Source of the DNA: Planctomycetota bacterium
GTDB lineage: Bacteria > Planctomycetota > J058
Assembly (NCBI GenBank): GCA_019636275.1
Contig: JAHBXY010000034.1
Coordinates: forward strand, 4,002 to 68,001
Length of the DNA stretch: 64,000 nt
Reading direction: 5' to 3'
Part shown: in pieces, positions 5,038 to 32,470 of the stretch
How the letters are laid out: every line of letters begins with the position of its first letter
Position numbering within the stretch: position 1 is the first letter of the stretch
Made by a program: the position numbers and the translations under genes
Notes under the pieces: model-generated
The model's input: the letters and a program-made list of their open reading frames with translations, nothing else
What the model was told of the DNA's origin: nothing
Database searches by the model: none

Positions 5038-6046
5038 CCGCGAGGGGGCCGTCGTGATCGTCGCGGGCTTGGACGAGGCGGGCTACGGGCCGAAGCTGGG
5101 CCCGCTGACGGTGGGCTGGACGGCGTTCCAGCTCGCGCCCGCCCGCGGGCGCGCGCCGGCGACGCCGCCCTGCCTGTGGGAGAAGCTCGGCGCGGCCGTG
5201 CGCGGCCAGGGCGACGGCGACCCGGCCAAGCTGTGGGTGGCCGACAGCAAGGCGATCAAGCCGCGCAAGGACGGGCTCAAGCAGCTCGAGCTGGCGCTCC
5301 TGGCCTTCGTCGGCAGCCGCGCCGGCGCGGCGCGCGGGGGGGCGCCCGCGCCGGCCACGCTGGCGGCGCTGCTCGAGGCGCTCGGCCAGCCGGCGGCGCG
5401 CTACGCGGAGATCCCCTGGTACGGCGACCTCGGCGGCGTGCGCGTCCCCGCCTGGTCGTGGTCGGGCGAGGTGGCCGCGCGCGCCCTGCGCCTGGTCGAG
5501 TGCGGCGCGCGCGCCGGCGTGACCTTCGCCGGGGCGGGCGTGCGCGTGCTCGACGAGCACGTCTACAACCGGCAGGTCGCGGCCACGCAGAACAAGGCGG
5601 CCGTGCTCGGCGACACGTTCGTCGACCTCGCCCGGCAGCTCCGCGCCGCGTTCGAGGGCCCGATCGACCTCGCCTGCGACAAGCAGGGCGGCCGCGCCGC
5701 CTACACCGACCTGCTCGCGCGCGCCTTCCCCGGCTGCCCGCTCGTGGTCGACCACGAGGAGCCGGAGCTCTCGCGCTACCGCGTCGAGACGCCGCGCGGC
5801 CCGCTCCGGGTGACCTTCCGCCCCGAGGCCGAGCGGACGAGCCTGCCCGTGGCGCTGGCGTCGATGATGTGCAAGTACCTGCGCGAGATGTTCATGCTGC
5901 GCCTCAACGAGTGGTTCGGCGCGCGGGTCCCCGGGATCGAGCCCACGGCCGGCTACGGCAGCGACGCCACGCGCTGGCTCGTCGACGTCCAGCCGGCGCT
6001 GCCGCGGCTGGGGGTCCCCCTCGATGCGCTCGTCCGCAGCAGGTGA
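5038..6046 (+). CDS. hypothetical protein with RNase HII-like motifs (GLDEAGYGP ... DSKAIKPR)
   Basis: 336 aa. GLDEAGYGPKLGPL resembles the type-2 RNase H motif I, and a DSK motif follows. It is longer than canonical RnhB, so the assignment is tentative. Confidence 0.35.
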
Positions 6047-6062
6047 GGGTAGGATTCCGGCC

Positions 6063-6638
6063 ATGCGCCGCGCGCTCGTCGTCCTGGCCCTCCTCGCCGG
6101 CTGCGCCGCCGACCCGGCCCCGCGCCGGCCGCTCGAGCCCACGCCGATCCCCGACCCGCCCGCCCCGGCGCCGACGCCGGTCGTCTCGCCCGACGAGGTC
6201 GTGGGCCAGCCCACGACGGTCGATTTGACGACGCCCGACGTCGCCGGGTGGGAGGACGCGACCGAGGGCGAGGCCGCCACGCTGGTCTACGTGACCGAGC
6301 AGGGGCGCCGCGACCGGGCGCAGGCGGCGGCGATCGTCTTCTCGAGCGACCCGAAGCACCCGCACTTCCAGCGGCGCAGCACCAGCCGCGTCACCGTGCA
6401 GCGGGTCACGCGCGCCGACATGACCGCGCTCCTGCGCGACCTCGCCGCGCTGGGCCTCGAGCGCCTGCCCTGGGCGGCGCAGGCGTTCGATGAGGAGATC
6501 GGCCCCGAGCGCGCGCTCTACCTCTACCGCGGCGGCCGGCGCACGCACGTCGAGAAGGACACGCTCCCCGACCCGGCGCGCCAGACGTTCACCGCGCTCG
6601 AGCGGCGCCTCGTGCAAGCGACGCTCGCGACTCGGTAG
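6063..6638 (+). CDS. lipoprotein, unknown function
   Basis: Has a signal peptide with lipobox LLAGC. The N-terminus is Pro-rich. Confidence 0.5.
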   Translation: MRRALVVLALLAGCAADPAPRRPLEPTPIPDPPAPAPTPVVSPDEVVGQPTTVDLTTPDVAGWEDATEGEAATLVYVTEQGRRDRAQAAAIVFSSDPKHPHFQRRSTSRVTVQRVTRADMTALLRDLAALGLERLPWAAQAFDEEIGPERALYLYRGGRRTHVEKDTLPDPARQTFTALERRLVQATLATR

Positions 6639-6745
6639 CCTGGATCATGCATGAGCCATGCAACCGCCAAGAACGGCCGACAACAGGCAGGATCGTGAAC
6701 AGGCCTTCGTTCTCACGAGTGTTCGCGCCGCGACACGCCCAAGGC

Positions 6746-6954
6746 GAAGAATTGAACCGCCAAGACGCCACTCGGTCGCTGACCCGGGACCCGCTTCGCG
6801 GGTCCCGGGTCAGCGACCGAGCGCCAAGGGTGTGAGAGATGCTCCGCCACAAGCTCTTCGTTCTTACCTACTTTCCTCCCTTGGCGCGCGCGCACGCGGG
6901 GACCCGCGAAGCGGGTCCCCGCGTGCGCGCGTGGCGTCTTGGCGGTTCAATTCT
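6746..6954. repeat. nested palindromic element: 24-bp perfect outer inverted repeats enclosing two long perfect hairpins (24-bp and 21-bp stems) and a 9-bp inner inverted repeat
   Basis: The outer repeat gaagaattgaaccgccaagacgcc (6746-6769) is the reverse complement of 6931-6954. Hairpin 1 is ctcggtcgctgacccgggacccgc-ttc-gcgggtcccgggtcagcgaccgag (6771-6821). Hairpin 2 is cgcgcgcacgcggggacccgc-gaa-gcgggtccccgcgtgcgcgcg (6886-6930). Both hairpins share the core GGGACCCGC/GCGGGTCCC. An inner inverted repeat cgccaaggg/cccttggcg is also present. The element lies in a local low-GC intergenic region. Confidence 0.85.
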
Positions 6955-7110
6955 TCTTCTTCTGCCAGAGCTTTGCGGTGCTCGTGAGTAATCCCGGCTA
7001 GACGGCTGCGGTCGCGGATGCCGGTCAGGCTGCGGGGTCTGCGCGGTCGGCCCTGGCCAGGGGCCGCGCCGGAGCGGGTCCGCGGCGGTGTGCTAGAGTC
7101 GGCCGCCCAC

Positions 7111-7845
7111 ATGACCAGCCCCACGCCCACCCGCGCCGACTTCGCCCGCCTGCCCGAGGCCGTGGCGATCATCATGGACGGCAACGGGCGCTGGGCGCAG
7201 GAGCGCGGGCTGCCGCGCTTCAAGGGGCACGAGGTCGGCGCCGAGAGCGTGCGCGCCGTCACGCGCGAGTGCGCGCGGCTGGGGATCGGCGAGCTGACGC
7301 TCTACGCCTTCTCGACCGAGAACTGGCGCCGCTCCGAGCAGGAGGTGGCGCTCCTCATGGCGCTCCTCGAGCGCTACCTGGTCGAGGAGCGGCGCGAGAT
7401 CATGGACAACGGGATCGTCTTCCGCGCCGTCGGCGAGCTCGAGCGGCTCCCGGCGGCGGTGCAGCGGGAGTACGAGACCACCCGCGCCATGAGCGAGGGC
7501 AACGACGGGATGGTCCTGCGCCTGGCGCTCTCCTACGGCGGCCGCCGCGAGCTCCTGCACGCGGCGCAGAAGGTCGCCCGCCTGGCCGTCGCCGAGGGCC
7601 TCGAGGCGGTCGAGCGCCTGGGCGAGGACGACCTGCGCCAGTTCCTCTACGACCCGTCCATGCGCGACCCCGACCTCATGATCCGCACGGCGGGCGAGCT
7701 GCGCGTGTCGAACTTCCTCCTCTGGCAGGCCAGCTACGCCGAGCTCTACGTGGCCGACGTGGCCTGGCCCGACTTCCGCGAGGCCGCCCTGCACCAGGCG
7801 CTGCGCGCCTACGGCGCGCGCGAGCGGCGCTTCGGCGGCGTGTAG
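7111..7845 (+). CDS. uppS: di-trans,poly-cis-undecaprenyl-diphosphate synthase
   Basis: Motifs IIMDGNGRWA, LTLYAFSTENWRR and RTAGELRVSNFLLWQ are the canonical UPP synthase blocks. Confidence 0.9.
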   Translation: MTSPTPTRADFARLPEAVAIIMDGNGRWAQERGLPRFKGHEVGAESVRAVTRECARLGIGELTLYAFSTENWRRSEQEVALLMALLERYLVEERREIMDNGIVFRAVGELERLPAAVQREYETTRAMSEGNDGMVLRLALSYGGRRELLHAAQKVARLAVAEGLEAVERLGEDDLRQFLYDPSMRDPDLMIRTAGELRVSNFLLWQASYAELYVADVAWPDFREAALHQALRAYGARERRFGGV

Positions 7846-7851
7846 CCGGTC

Positions 7852-7912
7852 ACCGGTCACCGCCCACCGGTCACCGGTCACCGTGCGCGCCACCGCCCGC
7901 GCCGGGGTGTCC
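7852..7912. repeat. dispersed ~55-bp GC-rich repeat (ccggtcaccggtcaccgccc...caccgtgcgcgccaccgcccgcgccggg), copy 1
   Basis: Near-identical sequence recurs at 45172-45232. Copy 1 carries an extra 'accggtcaccggtc' insert. It sits immediately after the uppS stop. Confidence 0.6.
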
Positions 7913-10399: not shown

Positions 10400-13300
10400 C
10401 CAGCCGCGAGAAGCGGGCCCGTCGCGCCACGCTCCTGACGCTCGCCGCCGCGGCGGGCGCCGCGGGGTTGGTCGTCACGAGCCGGGCGCAGGAGCCGCCG
10501 CCGTCCGAGGCGGTCGTCACCCTGGCGTTCGACGCGGTCGCCGACACCTACGTGGCGAAGGACGCGCAGAACCGACCCCATGGCTCGGAGGCCGCCCTTG
10601 CCGTCGAGCAGGCGCCACGGCGCCGGGCGCTCGTCCGCTTCGACCTCGCGGCGGTGGGCGCCTGGCTGGCGCCGGACCGCCTCGAGTCCGCCGAGCTCGA
10701 GCTGACGATCGCGGGCGAGGTGAGCCTCCCACCTGCCGGGAAGCAGGCGACGCTCCCGATCGGCGCGCACCGCCTCACCGCGGCGTGGAGCGAGGCCGCA
10801 GCCACCTGGACCCGGCCGGCGGCGGGCCAGAGCTGGAGCATGGACAAGGCCCCGCTCCCCTTCGCGGATGCGCCGACGACCACGCTGTCGCTGGCCCGCG
10901 GCCAGCGCGGCGTCGTCAGGCTCGACGTGACGCGCGACGTCGCCGCCTTCCTCGCCGGCGAGACGCCCGGCGAAGCGCGAGACCACGGGTGGGTCCTCAG
11001 GTGCCTCGACGAGTCCGGTCCTGGCGCCGTCCGCTTCACGTCGCGTGAGGCGGGGGCCGGGCCACGCCTCGTCGTGCGCCTCCGTGACGTGACGCCCCCG
11101 TCGCTCGTGATCGACACCCCCGTCGAGGACGCCTGGACCGGCCCGGCGGACCAGGTGCGCGTGACGTTCACCGACCCTCGGACCGGGATCGCGGCAGGGT
11201 CGTTCGCCGCGCGCGTCGGCGGGGTCGACGTGACGGGCCACTTCGAGGTCGGGCCGGGCGGCGCGACCGCGCCGCTCGCCGCGCTCGCCGCCGCCCTGGC
11301 CCAGGGACCGAACCAGCTCGCCTGCGAGGTCCGCGACGTCGCCGGCAACTTGGCCTCGGCGGAGGTCGGCTACAGGTTCGACTCGGTCGGGCCCGCCGCG
11401 GCCCTGACGCCGCCGCCCGGCGCGGTGGTGACCACGGACACGATCTCGGTTCGTGTGACGTACGAGGACCTGGGCGCCGGCGTCGACCTGGCGACCGTCG
11501 CCGCGAGCCTCGACGGCGAGCCGCTCGCGCTCGAGGTGGGCGCGGCCGAGGCGACCGCGGTGGTGACGCTCGGTCATGGCGAGCACACGCTCACCGCCGA
11601 GGTCCGGGACCTGGTCGGCAACCCGACCGTCGCGAGCTCGACCTTCCGCGTGGTCCTCTTCGGCGCGCTCGAGGGCGTCGTCGGTGGCGCACGCGCCGAG
11701 GACGCGCGCATGATCACGCCCCTGCCGGGCGTCCGCGTGCGCGCGTTGACGCCCGAGGCGCCGGAGGTCGTCACCGACCACCAGGGCAACTTCACCTTGC
11801 CAGGCGTCCGGGCCGGGCAGCCGGTGGTGCTCGTCGCCGACGGCGCGACGCAGGGCTTCGGCCGCGCTTACATGACCGTCGAGGCCGTCGCCGACCGCAG
11901 CGTTCCGGTCGATCGCTCGGTGATCCTGCACGAGCTGCCCGCGGAGCAGACCCCGCTCGCCCTCGACGCGGACGGCCGCACGACGCAACAGCTCGTCCTC
12001 ACGAACCCGGACGTCCCGGGCCTGAGCCTGACCATCGACGCCGGCTCGCGGGTCGTCCTCCCCGACGACCTCACGCCCGGGGTGACGCCGGCCTTGTCGA
12101 TCACGCGCCTGGCCTGGGCCGCGACCCCGAACCCGCTGGCGAGCGACCTCTACGCCTCGTGGTGGGTCATGGCTCACCCGGTCGGGGCGCAGGTCGTCGA
12201 GGGCTTCGGCCTGACGCTGCCCAACGACCTCGGCCTCCCGCCGGGCACCGAGGTCACCTTCCAGCAGTTCGATCACCGCACGGGGGCGCTCTTCCCCAAG
12301 ACGACGCTGCGAGTCTCGGCGGACGGCAGCCGCCTCGAGGGGCGCTTCAACTCGGACCTCCTGAACGGCGCGGCGGCCGTCGCCGGCGGTCCGCCCATGA
12401 CGGTCTCCTTCAACGTCGACCTGACCGCGAGCGGCTCGGTCTCCACGTTGTTCGCCCAGCTCAACGGTGCCAGCGCAGGCCTGTACCCGACCGCGACTCC
12501 TGGCGTCTACGTGTTCACGGGGACGCAGCCGACGAACCCGACGGGGGGGACCCCTTCCACCCCGATCATCACGCTCACGCGCACTCCGACCTTCCCGACG
12601 ACGATCCAGCCCGTCCCCACGACGCCTCCGCCCGGCACGACGACGAACACCATCGGGTCGGTCCCGCTGATCTGCGAGGTCTGGCCGCAAGCCATCGGCC
12701 CCGGGCAGACGCTGCACGTCCGCGTCGCCGGCGCGCCGCACTTCCATGCGCTGGTCGCCCACGTCGGGAACCAGAGCGCCCCCCTGAGTCACCTCGCGAC
12801 CCAGGGGGACGTCTACCTCTTCCGCTCGCCCGCGGACGCGCCGCTCCCCGAGGGCTCGTACGTCCTCGAGTGGCAACAGGGCAGCCCCTTCCGCGACGAC
12901 AAGCTCTGGTTCTCGGGGGCCCCGCCCGCGAATCGGCTGGCGCTCGACCGCACCGCGCCCGCGATCTCGACCCTCTCCTTCCCGGAGGGGGTCACCACCC
13001 AACCCCAGGCCACCCTGCAGCTCGTGACGGGTGACGCGGTCGCCGGCATCAGGAGCGTCGAGCTCCAGGCATTCTCAGGCTCCACCTTCGAGACCGTAGC
13101 TGGCCCGTTCCTCTTCGGCGAAGCGGGCTCCTTCGGCCCGACGAGCGTGAACCTGAGCCAGTCCCTCCCGCTCACGACCGGCACGAACCGCGTCCGCGCC
13201 GTCGTGGTGGATACCGCCGGGATCTCGCAGGTCAGGGAGACGACGGTCGTCCTCGACACCGTCCCCCCCGTGTTCCTGGCGACGAGCTTCCCGCCGACCG

Positions 13301-19300: not shown

Positions 19301-22300
19301 GGCTCGGGGACCTCAATGCCTCGCCGGCCGACGACGGCCACCGCTTCGGCGACCCCGTGCGCGCCGAGGCGCCCTCGGTGCGCGTCGCGACCGGGCAGAC
19401 GCTCATGCAGGCGGTCTACGGCCCCGCGCAGGCGGTCGTGACGCTGCTCGAGACGAGCCCCCTGGGCCAGCCCCTGCGCGCGGTCGACCCCGAGGGGAAC
19501 GTCACGCTGTTCCACTACCACCCCGAGGCCGATCCCGACGGCGACGGCGTTCCGGAGCCGGGGGTCACGTCGACGGTGACGACCGGCGGCTGGCTGGCCG
19601 AGGTGATCGTCGACGCCGTCTCGGCCCCGGGCCGCAACGCCGGCACGAACCCGCCGCCCGTGGCCGCGCGCACGCGCCTCTTCTACGACCGCGCGGGCAA
19701 CCCGACGCGGGTGATCGACCCGCGCGGGGTCGAGCACCGCACGACCTACAACGTGCTCAACGAGCCGGTCTCCTCGCGGGTGGCCACCGCGATCGTCGGC
19801 TCGTCCGGGGGCCCGGTCACCGAGCCGGGCCTGGCGCCGCTGGGCTACGAGGCGCGGGTCACCTACGACGCCAACGGCCGCCCGGTCGAGGTGCGCGTGA
19901 GCAACGCCGGTGAGCGCGACGGCTCGGTGACGCAGGTGGCGACGAACCCCTGGTGGACGCGCAAGGTCGCCTACGACCTCCTCGACGGCGCCGTCCTCAC
20001 GCTGGCCGAGGTCGAGCCGATCGCCGACGACGCGTCGATCACGGTGAGCTCGCCGGGGGTCGTCGTGAGCCGGGTCGTCTACGAGCCCAACCGCGACGTG
20101 CGCCTGGTGGTCAAGCCGGAGGGGAACGTCGTCCACTACGTCCACGACGAGCGGAGCCGGCTGGCCTACGTCACCGACGGCCTGGGGACGCCCGAGCAGG
20201 CGACGACGACGCTGCTCGTCGACGTGAACGGCAACCTCGAGCGGATCGTGAGCCCGGTCAAGCGGAACCCGACCAAGGCGCCCGGCTACGCGGGCGACGT
20301 CACCCTGCTCCGCTACAACGGCTTCGACGAGCAGATCTGCACGCACGACCCGGAGGGGAACTGCGGCGACGCGGTCATGGATCCGCTGGGCCAGAAGGTG
20401 CGCTTCGTGCGGCACGGACCGAACGAGGAGAACCTGCCGCGCCTGCTCGAGGTGGAGTACCACTACGACGAGCTAGGCCGGCTCTTCCGGACGGACGCGC
20501 GGGTGTTCGAGGACCTGACGCAGCGCTTCGAGAAGCACGGCGCGGCCTTCCGCACGATCCCCACGATCGACCACGCGCCGCCGGCCGGGGAGGAGGAGGC
20601 GGTCACGCTCGTCGAGCTCGACGCGCTCGGGCGGGCCCTGCGCGGGGTCGACCCGAAGGGCGACGAGAGCCTGGCGGTGTGGGACGGCGCCGGCCGGCTC
20701 CTGCGGGCGCTGGGGCCCATGTTCAGCTCGGTCGCGGGCGCGGGCGCCGTGCGTAACGAGGTGCGCTTCGCCTACAACCAGGCGGGCCAGCCGGTCTCGG
20801 TCACGACGTTCGACCGCTCGCCGCTCGGGCTCGAGCAGACCTTCACGTCGACGGCGGCCTACGACGCCGTGGGCCGGCTGTTCCAGGCCACCGACCCGGC
20901 GGGGCACACCGGCCGGCTGGTGTACGACTCGCGCGGCAACGTGATCGGGGCCTCGGACGCCAACTCCCTGGCCACGGTGCCCAACCTGCCAGGCCTCTGG
21001 CCGCCGACGGTGAACGGCCACGGCAACGTCGCCCGGACCTTCTACGACGGCCTCTCGCGCCCGGTGGCCAGCGAGGTCTTGCTGAAGAAGGGCGGCGTGG
21101 GCGACGGCAGCCTCGACGACACGAACCTCGACACGGGCAACGCGAGCAACCCCGACGGCAAGATCACGATCACCCAGCGCTGGGATCGCAACTCGCGTCT
21201 CGTCTCGCGCAGCGACGACAACGGTAGCACCACCGGCTGGGCCCACGACGCCCGCGACCGCGTCGTCTACACCCTCGGCGCCGACCTGAGCGTCCAGCGC
21301 ACGCTCTACGACCCCGACTCGCTCGTGCGGCAGACGATCGACCGCAACGGGACGGTGATCGACAGGTCGTACGACGCGGCCGGGCGGTTGTTGAAGGTCG
21401 AGGCCACGCGGCGGGCCACGAACCTCGAGGGCACCGGTCAGGCGGTCGAGGGGACGGCCGTGCAGGCGTTCGAGTACGACGGCCTGCACCGCGTGCGCCT
21501 GGCGGTCGACCAGAACGACCCGCTCGACCCGACGGACGACGTGGCGACGTCGTTCACGTACGACTCGCTGGGGCGGCAGCTCACGGAGCGGCACCGCTTC
21601 CGGGCGCAGACGAGCCTCGTGAGCACGTTCGCCACGCAGGGCCGGATCACCGTCGGCGCGGCGGGGATCGACCGGACGATCACGCGGACGTTCGACCTCG
21701 ACTCGAACCGCACGTCGACCACCTACTCGAGCGGCCGGACGCTCACCTACCAACTGGACGGCCTTGACCGCCTCCAGGCGATCCGCGACTCCGTCGGCAC
21801 GATCACGGCCATGGAGTTCGTGGGCGGGCGGCCGCTGGCGAGCACCACGGGCCGCGGGACGGTGAGCACGTCCTACTCGTACGACGCGAAGCGGCGGCTG
21901 ACGGGCCTGGACCACGTCGGGAGCGCAGGGAGGATGGCCGGCTTCGGCTACGCGTGGGACCGCGCCGACCGCCGCGCGAGCGAGACGCACCTGCCGGCGG
22001 TGGGCGTGGCGGCGCGGACGGAGACCTACACGTACGACTCGGCGTCCAGGATCACGCGCGTGGCCTTCGGCGACGCGCGGCCGGACACGTCGTGGGTGAT
22101 CGACGGCGTGGGCAACTGGGTCAGCCGCACCGAGGGCGGCCAGACGCAGACCACGAACCAGCGCCAGAACGGGAGGTACGCCCCGGACCTCATGAACGAG
22201 GTCCAGCGCCTGGCGACGTTCAACGCGCTGGGCTCGCTCGTGAAGGACGAGCAGCACACCCAGGACCCGAACGGAAACCGGATCAAGAGCGGCGAGTGGC

Positions 22301-23769
22301 GGCTGTCGTTCGACGTGTTCGACCGGCTCGTGCGCGTGGAGCGGACGAGCGACGGGCAGACGGTCGGCAGGTACCGGTACGACGCGCTTGGCCGGCGCGT
22401 CGACCGGTGGTTCGTGGCTCGCGGGGAAGCGGTCGGGCAGCAGGCGTTCCACGTCAACGACGGCGCGCAGGAGGTCGAGGAGGTCGACGGGGCGGGCAAC
22501 GTCGTCGCCGACTACGTGTGGGGCGGGCTCTACCTGGACCAGGTCGTCCAGATGCGGCGGGGGGGGCAGGAGTACCACCTGCACGCCAACTCGATCTGGT
22601 CGGTGGTCGCGGCGACCGACGCGAGCGGGGCGGTGGTGGAGCGGTACTCGTACGCGTCGATCTACGGCGTGTGCGAGGTGCGCGACGCCGCGGGTGCGCC
22701 GCGGGCGAGGAGCGAGGAGATCGGGAACCCGTGGAGGTTCCAGGGGAGGAGGTTCGACCCGGAGACGGGCTTCTACTACTTCAGGCTGAGGTACCTGGAC
22801 CCGGAGGGAGGGAGGTTCGTCAGCAGGGATCCGCTGGGGATCTGGGGAGACGCGGGGCAGTTCGGGAATGCCTACTCGTTCTGCGGGAACGATCCGGTCA
22901 ATCGGGTGGATCCGTGGGGGTTGGAGGGGGAGGACCGTGGGCCGGATCGGCCATGGTGGGTCTACATTCCAATAATTGGTCCATGGTGGGAGTTCCAGGA
23001 AACAAGGAGGGCTGCTCAGGAGTCGGAGGCTCGCCAGGACGAATGCGATCGGGAGTATCTGACTACGGCGCAGCAGGTAAGGCTCGGAGCACGTCGGGTC
23101 ACTCTCTACACGGCCACCGCTGGGTCCGCGATTGTGGCCGGAGAGGCGGGGGCGGTCGTTGCCTACTTTTCGGCACCAATCATCAGCCAATTCGCCACTC
23201 GGCTACTGAGCAGCCTTGGGCTACGCGGGGCGTTCAGTCTTGCGCAGAATCTCGCGTACCGCGCGTACGTTTGGGCTGCAACGCGCCTAATGGGGATTCA
23301 GTTGCGCTTCCTCGGCATCGGCGCAGCCGGAGCCGGAGGCGCCGCGCAGAGAATGGGAACCAGCGTAGTTCAGACGGGCGAGCGAAGCGTCCGACTGGAG
23401 ATCGAAGGACAGGTCGTTGGCACCATGAGGGTCGTTGCGGACAGGGTTACAGGCGCAATGAACACCATGAAGGGAGGACTTGACATTCGTGGTGTGGCGC
23501 CTCAAGGGCAAGGCTACGGGAAGGAACTCCTCATCAAGTCGTTCGACGCCCTCCGCGCACTCGGCTATCGGGTGACCAGATTCAGGACGGATTGGACACC
23601 AGGGCTGGACACGAATCTCAAGGCATTCCAAAGGGCCATTGCGAGTGGGATGTCTCCCCAGCGAGCCGCGTTCGAGACGCCCACCGGCAAAGCGATGCTT
23701 GACCTGGGATTCACAAACGTCGAGATCATCAAGAACACCGCAGGGCAGGTCATCCTGGAGTTCTTCTAA
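10396..23769 (+). CDS. giant secreted RHS/YD-repeat polymorphic toxin (Ig-like stalk, RHS shell, variable C-terminal toxin tip with GNAT-like fold)
   Basis: About 4458 aa with a signal peptide. Roughly 2400 aa of repeated Ig-like or carboxypeptidase-regulatory-like modules come first. The RHS shell starts near 17640 (WTRSYKGYGLYAGPLGHRWTHGFDQRLL) and contains many YD repeats (YDSRGNV, YDAAGRL, YRYDALGRRVDR). The RHS core ends at PWRFQGRRFDPETGFYYFRLRYLDPEGGRFVSRDPLGIWGD...DPVNRVDPWGL (22909-22923). A 282-aa low-GC tip follows, with hydrophobic segments and then VRLEIEGQVVG...LDIRGVAPQGQGYGKELL (GNAT motif A-like). Confidence 0.9.
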   Translation: MTSREKRARRATLLTLAAAAGAAGLVVTSRAQEPPPSEAVVTLAFDAVADTYVAKDAQNRPHGSEAALAVEQAPRRRALVRFDLAAVGAWLAPDRLESAELELTIAGEVSLPPAGKQATLPIGAHRLTAAWSEAAATWTRPAAGQSWSMDKAPLPFADAPTTTLSLARGQRGVVRLDVTRDVAAFLAGETPGEARDHGWVLRCLDESGPGAVRFTSREAGAGPRLVVRLRDVTPPSLVIDTPVEDAWTGPADQVRVTFTDPRTGIAAGSFAARVGGVDVTGHFEVGPGGATAPLAALAAALAQGPNQLACEVRDVAGNLASAEVGYRFDSVGPAAALTPPPGAVVTTDTISVRVTYEDLGAGVDLATVAASLDGEPLALEVGAAEATAVVTLGHGEHTLTAEVRDLVGNPTVASSTFRVVLFGALEGVVGGARAEDARMITPLPGVRVRALTPEAPEVVTDHQGNFTLPGVRAGQPVVLVADGATQGFGRAYMTVEAVADRSVPVDRSVILHELPAEQTPLALDADGRTTQQLVLTNPDVPGLSLTIDAGSRVVLPDDLTPGVTPALSITRLAWAATPNPLASDLYASWWVMAHPVGAQVVEGFGLTLPNDLGLPPGTEVTFQQFDHRTGALFPKTTLRVSADGSRLEGRFNSDLLNGAAAVAGGPPMTVSFNVDLTASGSVSTLFAQLNGASAGLYPTATPGVYVFTGTQPTNPTGGTPSTPIITLTRTPTFPTTIQPVPTTPPPGTTTNTIGSVPLICEVWPQAIGPGQTLHVRVAGAPHFHALVAHVGNQSAPLSHLATQGDVYLFRSPADAPLPEGSYVLEWQQGSPFRDDKLWFSGAPPANRLALDRTAPAISTLSFPEGVTTQPQATLQLVTGDAVAGIRSVELQAFSGSTFETVAGPFLFGEAGSFGPTSVNLSQSLPLTTGTNRVRAVVVDTAGISQVRETTVVLDTVPPVFLATSFPPTVTRHAQLLFSTQVTDEHSLVEQVSLLRDGMVAQTSTSPGKTVTRQFTEIVPDGRYTYSFRAVDSAGNVAHSASQEVVVDRAAPMITDVSAVKSADDAFTITFTVTEVGPAGLAGYEIERFRFGVPAGTVAADALSGFGPVTITLTDADRPDGDYSYRIRAIDQAQNEQVVTVEAGKVDQSPPAIHVGDLSGGVFGPGVRTGTCVVEDNFDPEHLSVFLDGAAPTLTITREQVAVDLVRTTISFSILKLVEGQHDLQVSATDPGGNTTTVNGTFTVDLTAPEVTQVEPASGLSSTPTIEFSADHEDILSEIVPDSTTLVLASDPIDLTAIALRTPTRTSATVTGVPDGQHTFILRLTDRAGNVTEHRHPVLVDTRAPQVTVTQAPAPAPAWTRDPRAPLRATFHDDGGSGVAEVRLLLDGVDVTDEASVSATSLTFAPDTLTNAAHEYRLEVRDRAGHVTTVSLPFQVDAAPPSAPGRPLAGARPLAATTIVRWLPSVDAGPSGVALYRLFRSEDGGETFQLAATTAATEATVAFPTGEKTVFRLVAVDAAGNVSAAVDAKGCEVVALHELTTAVSTVLQVRVQRSDGSPIADALVTETGGTGVVLAHLGDGLYRSGALTVPSGQPLYLQISADGTAFVSGPLLPLLPETTETDFGLVVLARHRLAQHVFAAGGQSGGQVGFTLGEAGAFGPPPATSGGFELAGGFWHGVDVEGEVVVHVLQTPPVLCAPYLPLTFEVVADGGAFDVTVEYSTDAGATFAPATIVAGATQALAGTPVGRRYMAIWHADADLGDLSLADVVVRVSPVGRPERGGRIGTTLIRSFKVLAVEPRAGTRDLDPQGELALTFSRPVTNDPANLAASIVLEDAVAGTSEPVDLFASGTPLGVAVRVVPRSALAPDREYRLRVLPGLRPATGQFVFDQHELVLGLSAFEAAYRTGGLDARAPRLLSSVPAHGAGGVPTGQTVFLFFDEELDPASVTDQSVVVTTAMGVVPAPVSLLADGRTVAVSPSLQPGRCYTVSVGRGVRDLAGNALADFGHVTFSTLTSQLTPPAPTITSPANGATLSDPRPLITGHAAPRYEVHLFVNGFPTGLRTVARDDGTFEIAPFALPDGDLTLFAVTAWPGGSPASVPGAPVSFRIETERLPASSPPAPGATDVHEVLAGALEEPAHRYELRFSGDPGAPFVLDVETLRRSQGLFAPIELRVAPENGGGTFSVAAGRQTLGAGSNTFDASGQARVTYRANDVVKDGARLRLVNPLDQTATEPQEVVQRSPIAFVGVGASPPFAGPIRASVALRARLLRSPETAILAGSGYPVRVRAVDENGEPTDAVAIDGQPGSTGATAVTDENGNVIVTFVHQDGEAPFALVVESGASFDCPPFDRLQPTRLGESGIFVPTGGESGPGGVFLATRNDPVNNLSDGQCDALAMSRPCPPEPPAGATAPKKRTQPINVDHGGKLQTRVDLVLPGRGVHFAWTRSYKGYGLYAGPLGHRWTHGFDQRLLRQPSGDVLWVTGTARTETFRSVGGGRFATPRGFDVVLSVDAQGVGTLRDPSGGKAVFRAFGAVNAPGALAEVRDAHGNRLALEYGVTGAVAGRLIAVVDPLGRRVDLGYDLLGRIVTVTDHLGRQVRYRYSRLGDLIAATSPEVLATTEGELLPAADQFPEGRTEVYAYTSGFADERLNHQMLLRVAPVEAAKLPPGRLEDLSLLRPLACVENTYDLDPDSPSYGSVIKQRWGGESVLPAWTGETAPLAAGGTSTFRYEDLPLPPNASLNHPARKTTIVDRAGNLVELFHNRAGQCVRVRQYTNRNVRPGEPEFYEATKVYNHAGLLIAHTLPTGSTTRWIHADEDLNGDGALTPGEDRNGDGDFDDPEDVQPEDDPRYAYRPGNGVLDRRAPWQRLQLLRVVQEPDARGDTRGGVRPRIRTFEYDPVFGRLIRHTDPRGHDSDYTPQNGGPWSPERYTSHVRLDYQQGEPTATRAALAAELGTSEADLQALLDEAGVVLGLGDLNASPADDGHRFGDPVRAEAPSVRVATGQTLMQAVYGPAQAVVTLLETSPLGQPLRAVDPEGNVTLFHYHPEADPDGDGVPEPGVTSTVTTGGWLAEVIVDAVSAPGRNAGTNPPPVAARTRLFYDRAGNPTRVIDPRGVEHRTTYNVLNEPVSSRVATAIVGSSGGPVTEPGLAPLGYEARVTYDANGRPVEVRVSNAGERDGSVTQVATNPWWTRKVAYDLLDGAVLTLAEVEPIADDASITVSSPGVVVSRVVYEPNRDVRLVVKPEGNVVHYVHDERSRLAYVTDGLGTPEQATTTLLVDVNGNLERIVSPVKRNPTKAPGYAGDVTLLRYNGFDEQICTHDPEGNCGDAVMDPLGQKVRFVRHGPNEENLPRLLEVEYHYDELGRLFRTDARVFEDLTQRFEKHGAAFRTIPTIDHAPPAGEEEAVTLVELDALGRALRGVDPKGDESLAVWDGAGRLLRALGPMFSSVAGAGAVRNEVRFAYNQAGQPVSVTTFDRSPLGLEQTFTSTAAYDAVGRLFQATDPAGHTGRLVYDSRGNVIGASDANSLATVPNLPGLWPPTVNGHGNVARTFYDGLSRPVASEVLLKKGGVGDGSLDDTNLDTGNASNPDGKITITQRWDRNSRLVSRSDDNGSTTGWAHDARDRVVYTLGADLSVQRTLYDPDSLVRQTIDRNGTVIDRSYDAAGRLLKVEATRRATNLEGTGQAVEGTAVQAFEYDGLHRVRLAVDQNDPLDPTDDVATSFTYDSLGRQLTERHRFRAQTSLVSTFATQGRITVGAAGIDRTITRTFDLDSNRTSTTYSSGRTLTYQLDGLDRLQAIRDSVGTITAMEFVGGRPLASTTGRGTVSTSYSYDAKRRLTGLDHVGSAGRMAGFGYAWDRADRRASETHLPAVGVAARTETYTYDSASRITRVAFGDARPDTSWVIDGVGNWVSRTEGGQTQTTNQRQNGRYAPDLMNEVQRLATFNALGSLVKDEQHTQDPNGNRIKSGEWRLSFDVFDRLVRVERTSDGQTVGRYRYDALGRRVDRWFVARGEAVGQQAFHVNDGAQEVEEVDGAGNVVADYVWGGLYLDQVVQMRRGGQEYHLHANSIWSVVAATDASGAVVERYSYASIYGVCEVRDAAGAPRARSEEIGNPWRFQGRRFDPETGFYYFRLRYLDPEGGRFVSRDPLGIWGDAGQFGNAYSFCGNDPVNRVDPWGLEGEDRGPDRPWWVYIPIIGPWWEFQETRRAAQESEARQDECDREYLTTAQQVRLGARRVTLYTATAGSAIVAGEAGAVVAYFSAPIISQFATRLLSSLGLRGAFSLAQNLAYRAYVWAATRLMGIQLRFLGIGAAGAGGAAQRMGTSVVQTGERSVRLEIEGQVVGTMRVVADRVTGAMNTMKGGLDIRGVAPQGQGYGKELLIKSFDALRALGYRVTRFRTDWTPGLDTNLKAFQRAIASGMSPQRAAFETPTGKAMLDLGFTNVEIIKNTAGQVILEFF
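20758..22923 (+). repeat. 2.17-kb direct repeat (RHS core), copy 1; partner at 38602-40767
   Basis: Near-identical DNA and protein between the main RHS and the orphan cassette, running from EVRF(A/T)YNQAGQPV to DPWGL. Confidence 0.9.
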
Positions 23770-24397
23770 TGCCCTCGAGAGCCCAGTGACCAACCGTATG
23801 GCGCAGCATGGCCAGGGAGCGCTCTCCAAGGACGCGTCCGCCGTATGTAATCGCCCACAAGAGATCATCTCCTTGGTCGTCCATGTCTCGGTTGACCGAC
23901 GCGCGAGCGAACGCTCGAACTGCAAGTGCGCAGAAACACAACCGCTGGGCACCCGCCTGGTCCGCAATCTGACTAAGCGAACTGAGGTCGTCGTCCTGAC
24001 TAACTACACGCTGCCGGTGGTCATCGCATTGACATGCTTGCCAGCGACGAACTGACTCAACGAACGGTGAGAGAGTGCGCCCACCCGCGAACGAGTGGTC
24101 AGCGACGAGCCACTCTCTCGCGACAGCCACGGCGACCGCTTCTGACGCGCGAATCGCTCCGTCACGCCACCGCGAGATCAAGGCAGAAGCCCACGCTCCC
24201 AAGGTTTCTGCCTCCCCGGGTTGAACATCACCGACAGCCCTCCTCGCCCCCTCATGCCCGCAGTACGCCGCCAACTCCAGCCGCTCCCGCGTGAGGTCCC
24301 CCACGCGCACGCGCTCCAGCAGGTAGGCGGCCTCGTCCTCGACGGCGCCCGTCTCCCGCCAGCGGCGTTCGAGTTCGCGTAGCTTGGCGTCGCTCAT
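23750..24397 (-). CDS. candidate cognate immunity protein (convergent to toxin tip); conserved N-terminus, variable C-terminus
   Basis: 215 aa. The ATG has the RBS GGGGAGAG. It overlaps the toxin stop by 20 nt. The first ~55 aa (MSDAKLRELERRWRETG...AAYCGHEGARR) are shared with the paralogue at 41716-42312, and the sequences then diverge. Local GC drops to about 56-60%. Confidence 0.5.
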   Translation of the reverse strand: MSDAKLRELERRWRETGAVEDEAAYLLERVRVGDLTRERLELAAYCGHEGARRAVGDVQPGEAETLGAWASALISRWRDGAIRASEAVAVAVAREWLVADHSFAGGRTLSPFVESVRRWQACQCDDHRQRVVSQDDDLSSLSQIADQAGAQRLCFCALAVRAFARASVNRDMDDQGDDLLWAITYGGRVLGERSLAMLRHTVGHWALEGIRRTPG

Positions 24398-24676
24398 GAC
24401 GGCTGACTCTCCCCCGGAACCCCGAGCATGACCGTCCCCGCCGACATGCGCCGCGTCCTCCGCGCCCTCGCCGGCAAGCCCTGCTGGCACGTCTCGGCCG
24501 GCCCCGGAGTCGGCTCGACGTTCCAACTCGCCCTGGGTGCCAAGGTGCCACGGGCGAGGCCGCTCGCCAACCCTGCGCAGCCGCCGGCCTACCGGAAGTT
24601 CGAGGGCGAGTGCGCGCTCATGGTCTGGTGCGCCTGGCGACTCGACGGACCGCAGGGACCGGTGGTCAGCAGCGAC
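24232..24676. repeat. 445-bp direct repeat, copy 1 (divergent promoter block plus the 5' ends of two genes); partner 42147-42591
   Basis: Near-identical sequence at both sites. It encodes the N-termini of the minus-strand immunity-like genes and of the plus-strand MTVPADMRRVLRALAGK... genes. Confidence 0.85.
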
Positions 24677-32304: not shown

Positions 32305-32470
32305 GTCACCTCCGCTCGCGTCGGTCGCCCTGCGCGCGCGCGCGTCGTCGGGCCCGCGCGCGCGTTGTTCGGACCGCGCGCGCGGTCCTGCGCGCCCGCG
32401 CGCGCGTGTTGTTCGGGCCGCGCGCGCGTCGGTCGGACCGCGCGCGGGTCCTGCGCGCCCGCACGCGGCG
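32300..32470. repeat. GC-rich imperfect tandem repeat array (~20-22-bp units, core G(G/A)(C/G)CCGCGCGCGCG; includes perfect palindrome ggaccgcgcgcgcggtcc)
   Basis: About 7 units lie immediately upstream of the serine recombinase gene. Confidence 0.6.

Follow-up and report, generated by a model that had tools for sequence, protein, structure and literature searches.

A nested perfect palindrome upstream of uppS in a Planctomycetota genome: a probable elaborated member of a dispersed, heptamer-armed family of hairpin repeats

Introduction

Repetitive extragenic palindromic (REP) sequences, with the related REPINs and bacterial interspersed mosaic elements (BIMEs), are non-coding intergenic palindromes that are often found downstream of genes and lack target-site duplications. 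REP elements are multi-copy inverted pairs that form hairpins and may have roles in RNA stability or termination; their sequences are specific to a lineage and are linked to a RAYT (TnpA_REP) gene, which has REPs on both of its own sides. Bacterial miniature inverted-repeat transposable elements (MITEs), such as Correia/NEMIS, ERIC and the cyanobacterial Nezha, are about 100-400 bp in size, and Correia RNA is cut by RNase III. Intergenic repeats built from heptamers, the STRR sequences, were reportedly described in cyanobacteria by Mazel and co-workers in 1990. Here we analyse a nested palindrome that lies between a lipoprotein-like gene and uppS in a stretch of 64,000 nucleotides from a Planctomycetota bacterium (GenBank assembly GCA_019636275.1, contig JAHBXY010000034.1, positions 4,002 to 68,001), referred to below as the window; its source is a metagenome-assembled genome (MAG).

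Two further systems bear on this locus. Arrays of the heptamer TAACTGA are spread patchily across phyla, in Beggiatoaceae, Cyanobacteria and Bacteroidetes, with "no mechanism evident" (MacGregor 2015, PMC4679880), and nearly all are direct repeats just upstream of start codons, only one set of 170 being inverted (PMC4679880). Coxiella's 23S-rRNA intervening sequence (IVS) is a hairpin whose 28-bp terminal stem is cut by RNase III, and its 5′ side carries AGAAGA and the tandem heptamers (GACAGAT)3, which vary in copy number between strains; the IVS is of unexplained origin (PMC4990558). Heptamer repeats of these kinds, in STRR and TAACTGA arrays, in rRNA IVSs and beside genes for four-helix-bundle proteins, have been known for decades, and a mechanism for their origin and spread is lacking. 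The locus described here ties a striking single element to one heptamer family, whose 30-nt arm is shared by at least 118 species and by phages.

Results

The core of the element is a palindrome with four perfect stems (Table 1). Its outer arm, GAAGAATTGAACCGCCAAGACGCC (6746-6769), recurs inverted at 6933-6956 with a 100% match over 24 nt; the pair A6770/T6932 lengthens the stem to 25 bp, and pairing at 91% extends over 34 nt (6741-6774 / 6928-6961). A preliminary description, made from the letters of this DNA alone, had correctly recognised the outer repeats, the two perfect internal hairpins with their TTC and GAA loops (here A and B) and the core common to both. It ended the right arm two nucleotides early, at 6954, giving 209 bp in place of 211, and it found the perfect 9-bp arms of the inner stem, with a spacer of 39 nt where there are 47. 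The 21-nt core GGGACCCGC-N3-GCGGGTCCC is present in A as the reverse complement of the copy in B. We can reject chance as the source of this arrangement because the outer 24-mer has two matches only in the 64 kb at up to three mismatches, where none is expected, because the hairpin core likewise occurs twice only, in A and B, and because each strand is predicted to fold at -187 kcal/mol, where shuffled sequences reach -94 ± 5 (z = -19.3 and -18.5 for the two strands); the degree of perfection had already been judged well in excess of a simple terminator's. On either strand the predicted fold is a four-way junction of four perfect stems with no unpaired junction bases. The drop in GC content noticed earlier is also real, with values of 0.645-0.66 at the element against about 0.75-0.80 in its flanks.

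When A and B are removed from the sequence, what is left is a perfect 34-bp stem (GAAGAATTGAACCGCCAAGACGCCA followed by CGCCAAGGG, with its exact complement) around the 47-nt loop. The two hairpins split the arms at exactly mirrored positions and in like orientation relative to the arm sequence. Without them, the element would read as a canonical hairpin of the family to which its arms belong.

That family was defined operationally, as the arm TTGAACCGCCAAGACGCC with further CGCCAAG units, and the scan for it took one genome per species. The arm was found at at least 118 loci in about a dozen phyla. Listed carriers belong to Planctomycetota, Verrucomicrobiota, Lentisphaerota/Kiritimatiellia, Chloroflexota, Cyanobacteria, Armatimonadota, Acidobacteriota, Methylomirabilota, Myxococcota (three complete Sorangium genomes) and alpha-, beta- and gamma-proteobacteria; the arm also lies between phage genes on 10 IMG/VR viral contigs. 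These matches are not due to chance, since conservation runs past the 18 nt that were searched: AAG follows in about 90% of the 145 instances listed, and a further CGCCAAG unit in 63-82%. The consensus, TTGAACCGCCAAGACGCCAAGrmCGCCAAGr, is preceded by a purine-rich run, and its units are spaced by 1-2 nt, giving the general form TTGAAC + (CGCCAAG + 1-2 nt)n. Among the matches listed, 86 of 135 have an inverted partner, at a distance of 300 nt or less in 74, and the paired arms form hairpins of 60-310 nt with mutually unrelated interiors; exact arm copies number 1-7 per genome, with 3-7 in several genomes. Members are intergenic, and 24 of the 56 adjacent gene 3′ ends (again among the matches listed) fall within -3 to +14 nt of the element. 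Sister types built from other heptamers, for example ACCGCAGAGGACGCAGAG, CACGAAGG and GGACACAAAGG, occur in the same loci, and in three of them (L084, L118 and L017) sister-type arrays are nested inside CGCCAAG-type hairpins.

The window element carries exact matches to the arm at 6752-6769 and 6933-6950, 163 nt apart, with a third unit, CGCCAAGGG, resuming after hairpin A, and it too is intergenic. It is not a simple hairpin of the usual kind but an elaborated variant. An internal perfect hairpin with a stem of at least 8 bp is present in three of the 67 complete members listed, and mirrored hairpins of 21-24 bp in none of them except the homologue described below. The 47-nt loop had no counterpart beyond the window and that homologue in sequence comparison and a metagenome scan, and the hairpin core is absent from the viral contigs searched and from the other collected loci. 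On these sequence comparisons we regard the core as a lineage-specific, elaborated member of a dispersed family of hairpin repeats.

Comparison with relatives defines the unit that was inserted. Homologues of the upstream lipoprotein-like gene are found at 97% identity in four Logan contigs (L122-L125) and at 80% in a related MAG (L126). In all of these the sequence from the stop codon onwards is TAG TGTGATCG(A) CGGCTGCGGC.GCGG and there is no block, whereas the window reads TAG CCTGGATCATGCATGAGCCA...[block]...AATCCCGGCTAGA CGGCTGCGGTCGCGG. The junction was read by eye and then checked by a pattern search, in which GACGGCTGCGGTCGCGG at 7001-7017, with one mismatch, was the sole match in the window. 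Because the relatives' post-stop sequence reappears in the window only at that point, we conclude that about 362 bp have been inserted; they replace 7-9 nt (TGTGATCG(A)) of the relatives. The unit is therefore larger than the palindrome, which had been taken for the whole element, and it has a weaker terminal inverted repeat of its own: its ends (6636-6658 and 6980-7001) pair in the fold of 6630-7010, less strongly than the palindrome arms, and the left end matches the right end of the window block at 18 of 26 positions and the kinase-side end of the homologue in the related MAG at 21 of 26. Between the left end and the palindrome, the degenerate arm region (6659-6745) holds a third copy of AACCGCCAAGA and is 75% identical to that homologue; tandem left arms of this sort are common in the family (e.g. 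L006, L011, L056 and L079).

The ends of the four independent Logan contigs fall no more than 2 nt apart, 22-24 nt past the stop codon, which suggests a graph branch, through strain variation or a repeat, exactly at the insertion point of the window.

The homologue is a second copy of the block in the related MAG (L003), 86.8% identical over window positions 6659-7004. The flanks of the two copies are 44-50% identical, which is the background level, and the loci differ: the second copy directly follows the TAG stop of a Ser/Thr-kinase/FHA gene, which it meets with the end that corresponds to the right end of the window block, and the corresponding uppS (L001) and lipoprotein (L126) loci of the same MAG are without the block. 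Beyond the window the element is thus represented by this block and by the dispersed arm loci; within the 64-kb window it occurs once. The second copy is decayed. At the position of hairpin A it retains only CTCGG joined to GCGAG, the outermost bases of A; hairpin B departs from perfect pairing by one indel and one mismatch; the inner stem contains mismatches; and an extra unit stands in one arm. Since it keeps both the footprint of A and an imperfect B, A and B are older than the split between the two copies, of which the window copy is the intact one. A BLAST search of the block against plasmid and phage collections gave no match.

The related MAG shows an inverted repeat of another kind downstream of its lipoprotein gene: repeats of about 130 nt, R and R′ (L126 6700-6830 and 7690-7830), flank a gene of 228 amino acids. 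R begins contig 29 (L003 1-130) and R′ ends contig 24, so that the assembly breaks at repeat R. Window positions 7024-7070 may be a remnant of R.

Table 1. Positions of the palindrome, the inserted block and the adjoining sequence in the window
Feature	Positions	Strand	Description
Whole inserted non-coding block	6639-7000		about 362 bp, boundaries placed to about 10 nt
Left terminal inverted repeat of block	6636-6658	+	TAGCCTGGATCATGCATGAGC; starts with lipoprotein stop codon TAG
Solitary degenerate family arm and spacer	6659-6745	+	AACCGCCAAGAACGG at 6662-6676; makes a tandem left arm
Whole nested palindrome	6746-6956		211 bp; core of the larger block
Outer stem, left arm	6746-6770	+	GAAGAA + TTGAACCGCCAAGACGCC + A; arm that defines the family
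Hairpin A	6771-6821		arms 6771-6794 / 6798-6821; perfect 24-bp stem, loop TTC, core GGGACCCGC-TTC-GCGGGTCCC
Inner stem, left arm	6822-6830	+	CGCCAAGGG; third heptamer unit of the family arm
Inner loop	6831-6877		47 nt, lower GC, lineage-specific; kept in L003
Inner stem, right arm	6878-6886	-	CCCTTGGCG
Hairpin B	6887-6931		arms 6887-6907 / 6911-6931; perfect 21-bp stem, loop GAA; mirrored position to A
Outer stem, right arm	6932-6956	-	T + GGCGTCTTGGCGGTTCAA + TTCTTC
Right terminal inverted repeat of block	6980-7001	-	reverse complement TAGCCGGGATTACTCACGAGC
Homology to relatives resumes	7001-7030	+	sequence directly after the lipoprotein stop in relatives
Conserved uppS leader	7083-7110	+	GCGGCGGTGTGCTAGAGTCGGCCGCCCA; TGn-TAGAGT box like an extended -10; outside the element

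The neighbouring genes are as originally described. Both lie on the same strand; the upstream frame (6024-6638) has a lipobox-like LLAGC N-terminus and no assigned family, and the palindrome ends 155 nt before the start of uppS (7111-7845; TIGR00055, 1.6e-74). The UppS protein is 100% identical to one from a MAG named 'Planctomycetes bacterium', the next genome being MAG GCA_023954375.1 at 92%. Two other uppS loci (L001 and L121) have other upstream genes and lack the block, and the sole part that they have in common with the window is a leader of about 30 nt, GCGGTGTGCTAGAGTCGGCC. As this leader is kept there despite different upstream genes and the absence of the block, we read it as a putative promoter; uppS very probably has a promoter of its own, downstream of the element.

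The other end of uppS is also occupied by heptamers. A tandem array of (CCGGTCA), 5.4 copies at 7846-7883, begins immediately 3′ of its TAG stop (7843-7845); a short second (CCGGTCA) copy lies at 45170-45186, and no inverted partner was found. A TIGR02436 four-helix-bundle gene of the related MAG (L001 10764-11123, minus strand, within 10733-11240) directly follows the uppS stop there, with (TAGCTTT/TAGCTGT)n on one side and 12 copies of (AGCTAAC) on the other. This cassette and the window array together suggest that heptamer elements land repeatedly at the 3′ end of uppS. The habit of sitting at stop codons is seen likewise in the window block, the second copy of the block, the L001 cassette and (CCGGTCA)5 after the window uppS.

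Several family loci deserve mention in their own right. In two Stellaceae MAGs (L108 1275-1465 and L052 2712-2853), GC-rich mini-hairpins such as GCGGC-GAA-GCCGC and CCGGC-GGAA-GCCGG lie inside family arms or the loop; their loops, GAA/TTC in the former and GGAA and TTTC in the latter, recall the A/B cores (GCGAAGC motif). Viral contig L136 carries three partnerless arms in the same orientation (1039, 3074 and 5973), together with other heptamer types, upstream of genes. On a Dehalococcoidia contig (L010 1527, 1642 and 1869) single arms alternate with parS-like sequences (TTTCACGTGAAAC), and in a Phycisphaerales MAG a CGCCAAG-type hairpin is preceded, at a distance of 72 nt upstream, by a 6S RNA gene (L039 6906-7091; RF00013, at the gathering score). 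A literature search with literal repeat strings found no publication naming the CGCCAAG unit.

The window contains other repeats. At 58825-59052 there is a second inverted-repeat element, whose arms (CACAACAGAGGAGCAGAGGGAGCAGAG, 27 nt at 96%) are 174 nt apart and consist of units of the GCAGAG type, which is a sister to the CGCCAAG family; its predicted fold combines a long outer stem with a branched interior (z = -6.6). A GC-rich tandem repeat at 32313-32467, just after a stop codon, has a period of about 20-21 nt and about 6.9 copies of GCGCGCGCG + GTCGTCGGGCCC-like units, with overlapping palindromes. Segmental duplications relate 20758-22920 to 38602-40764 (2,167 nt, 92.7% identity) and 24238-24676 to 42153-42591 (439 nt, 93.9%), the copies being about 17.9 kb apart.

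Discussion

Taken as a whole, the locus is best explained as a REP/IVS-like non-autonomous palindromic repeat that forms the core of a non-coding insertion of about 362 bp, a reading to which we assign a probability of roughly 60%; most likely the element is a selfish repeat and not a dedicated regulator of uppS. Its arms place it in the family, the site is filled in one genome and empty in others, and a relative carries a second copy that has decayed; membership and insertion status are better supported than mechanism. What is new is an elaborated variant of known intergenic palindromic and heptamer repeats, and the conservation of the arm across phyla is surprising.

A number of observations weigh against this reading. 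There being no target-site duplication, the insertion is judged by comparison with two relatives only; with 7-9 nt replaced, the empty site falls short of a clean single-copy version; the empty allele is short in the Logan contigs, which end soon after the stop codon, and longer in L126; and the source is a MAG. The window holds a single copy of the element, the related MAG contributes one exact arm copy to the matches listed, and a metagenome scan with an interior 19-mer gave no further copies, only a chance match in an AT-rich contig. Among the neighbours of about 128 listed loci there is no gene that recurs beside family members and no mobilising enzyme, the recurrent neighbours belonging to abundant families only (histidine kinases, ABC ATPases, TPR and SDR proteins). 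Nor is there a transposase or four-helix-bundle gene between the listed arm pairs that are 0.6-1.7 kb apart, and a tblastn search with the four-helix-bundle protein of L001 returned nothing in the window and, in the other loci, one weak match (E = 0.022, L025).

An unlikely alternative is that the CGCCAAG heptamers, as DNA or RNA, form an array bound by a conserved protein, for example a four-helix-bundle/Avd-like pentamer or an OB-fold of the Csp/S1 type. The hairpin would then serve as a platform in regulation or defence, and the arms would have been conserved across phyla by selection on binding and not on mobility. Conserved arms around freely varying interiors would be expected of such an array, as would the 49 of 135 listed matches that are partnerless single arms, often just upstream of genes (in cyanobacteria and on phage contig L136); heptamer arrays also flank the TIGR02436 genes examined, and binding by S1, Csp or CsrA has been proposed for TAACTGA arrays (PMC4679880). 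This proposal has to contend with the lack of a genomically linked binding protein at the listed loci, with a window copy that close relatives can dispense with, and with unit spacing that varies between 8 and 9 nt. Recognition by a mobilisation enzyme would fit these data as well.

The preliminary description had suggested a MITE or REP-like mobile element, and of its proposals this one lies nearest to the data. The part of it that has held is dispersal: the arms recur at many loci, relatives lack the element at this site, and the block is found elsewhere. A classical MITE would be a deletion derivative of an insertion sequence (IS) with a DDE transposase, mobilised in trans through its terminal inverted repeats and leaving target-site duplications. 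Both the family arms and the block ends supply terminal inverted repeats, the element is non-coding and its family multi-copy, there is a presence/absence difference at the window site, and TAG stands at both ends of the window block; the empty site, however, is TAG-TGTGATCG-ACGG and not TAG-ACGG, and since it is not a clean single-copy version we claim no target-site duplication for the block. In the family at large, whatever boundary offset is taken, between none and two of the 25 complete hairpins listed have a direct repeat of 3 or 4 bp, about as many as chance would give; the flanking duplications that had been proposed as a check were not found. With no transposase lying between distant listed arm pairs or recurring nearby, and with a unit number that varies and often differs between the two arms of one element, unlike transposase-defined repeats, we consider this origin quite improbable.

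Less probable still is a dedicated cis-regulatory RNA or small RNA serving uppS or the lipoprotein gene, such as a riboswitch-like leader, an attenuator or a processed small RNA, which had also been put forward at the outset. The predicted structure is very stable, it is placed between same-strand genes a short distance upstream of uppS, and its loop is conserved in the second copy. That stability, though, is equal on both strands and is built of Watson-Crick pairs only, and stem mismatches across the family, in a small sample with each member oriented by its upstream gene, number 46 for G·U and 38 for A·C; because G·U is not in excess over A·C, nothing points to selection acting on a single RNA strand. 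Rfam searches returned nothing for the window element at E ≤ 10 but miRNA-hairpin noise, the best score being 42.5 bits against a gathering score of 80, and no match for 16 family loci. No sigma-70-like promoter was found in the element, and no U-tract terminator (0 sites); the outer stem is followed by TTCTTCTTCTGCC, not by the T-run of an intrinsic terminator. Both genes do without the element in relatives (uppS in L001 and L121, the lipoprotein gene in L122-L126), where the uppS leader is kept, and the second copy follows an unrelated kinase gene.

Template-switch correction of quasi-palindromes is an established mutational process, and the palindromes could be a local accident, produced where they stand by an inverted duplication or by template switching, unrelated to other loci and never mobile. 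The mirrored A and B would be derivable from one arm insert, X-core-Y, by two template-switch events, and only 3 of the 67 listed members have long internal hairpins rich in GC. This would account for A and B but not for the whole element: the arms fit a 30-nt consensus shared across phyla, the block stands at a different locus in a related genome, and close relatives have no element at this site. As an explanation of the locus we give it very little credence. A chimeric join or spurious fold-back in the MAG assembly is hardly credible, even though the genome is metagenome-assembled, the lipoprotein gene and uppS adjoin in this contig only and four Logan contigs break near this point, because a homologous block, complete with hairpin B and the outer arms, is present in an independent MAG, and because sequence of the lipoprotein locus lies on both sides of the block and the element is internal to the 64-kb window.

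Other candidates were considered and set aside. An integron attC site was rejected for the ends TTGAACC...GGTTCAA, since GTTCAA has C where R is required. The start of the arm (TGAACCGCC...GGCGGTTCA) is reminiscent of the TG...CA ends of IS3-family inverted repeats, a likeness that was dropped for lack of support, as were a mimic of 5S-rRNA helix I, mimicry of the CsrA or Shine-Dalgarno kind and a retron msd.

If the block is a non-autonomous palindromic insertion, its arrival would have been a DNA-level event driven in trans. Hairpins A and B could have arisen in two ways. Two orientation-specific insertions may have entered the same arm sequence (GACGCCA^CGCCAAG), or template switching may have produced palindromes around the self-complementary 21-nt core, X-core-Y in one arm becoming X-core-X′ and its complement Y′-core′-X′ in the other arm becoming Y′-core′-Y. 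The intact state of the window copy fits recent arrival and/or hairpin-templated correction, and youth and/or such correction could likewise explain the perfection of the four stems. Should the lipoprotein transcript read through the element, it would contain three predicted perfect duplexes of 21-25 bp, plausible as RNase III substrates or as a barrier to read-through, and uppS would then be left to its own promoter.

We put forward, tentatively and as a possibility that we think doubtful, that the arms and their sister types (CGCAGAG, CACGAAG, CACAAAG, AGCTAAC and others) are recognition sites of an undescribed mobilisation or RNA-processing system, shared by many phyla and phages and leaving no target-site duplication, which may involve the widespread four-helix-bundle (TIGR02436/Avd-like) proteins, whose genes have flanks of like kind. 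Hairpins that lack open reading frames (ORFs) would then be the non-autonomous partners, or 'intergenic IVSs', inserting by stop codons and into each other's arms and loops, and such insertions would build nested palindromes. The window would be a rare case with defined ends, offering filled and empty alleles with 97% neighbour identity and an older, decaying copy elsewhere.

The pairing of a filled with an empty site, together with the decaying copy, allows the ends and the evolution of the element to be read directly. For annotation, the palindrome should not be taken for an uppS riboswitch or leader. Elements of this type are also likely break points of short-read assemblies and of synteny.

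Among described systems, MITEs resemble the element in size, in terminal inverted repeats (present in the window), in their non-coding nature, in presence/absence differences between strains and in a folded RNA that would be open to RNase III, as Correia RNA is. They differ in that target-site duplications are lacking here, the listed arm pairs and neighbouring genes revealed no parent IS whose inverted repeats match, and the number of arm units varies; the interiors of this family are unrelated, whereas MITE copies share theirs. REP and REPIN sequences are likewise non-coding, intergenic, multi-copy palindromes in inverted pairs without target-site duplications. In contrast to them, the 30-nt arm described here spans about a dozen phyla and phages, neither a Y1-transposase gene nor any other recurs near the listed members, and the arms are heptamer arrays and not a single REP of 20-40 nt. 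With STRR and TAACTGA arrays the family shares short tandem intergenic heptamers near gene ends, a patchy occurrence across unrelated phyla that suggests horizontal spread, and the presence of several heptamer types in one intergenic region (here L136, L017 and L008); unlike those arrays, the CGCCAAG type is mostly found as inverted pairs that form a hairpin of 60-300 nt with a fixed TTGAAC prefix.

A further comparison is with 23S-rRNA IVSs. The window element lies between protein-coding genes and not in helix 25, 45 or 9 of 23S rRNA, and no family locus shows a 16S or 23S rRNA signature. Its heptamer unit is another one, its 47-nt loop contains no ORF, where IVSs can carry one for a four-helix-bundle protein (S23p, TIGR02436 or PF05635), and in the listed loci no such gene was seen to lie within a CGCCAAG-type pair; unlike IVSs, the window element also has two extra perfect hairpins and a four-way junction. 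Yet all three TIGR02436 genes examined, one in the related MAG (L001) and two on viral contigs (L137 and L138), are flanked by inverted tandem arrays of 7-8-mers, with a different unit in each. In IVSs, as here, terminal inverted repeats form a long, near-perfect stem around a variable interior, and that stem is made of tandem heptamers beside an AG-rich run, which in the window is GAAGAAGAAGAA next to TTGAAC(CGCCAAG..). The two also have in common a sporadic distribution, an unexplained origin and stems of a size suited to RNase III.

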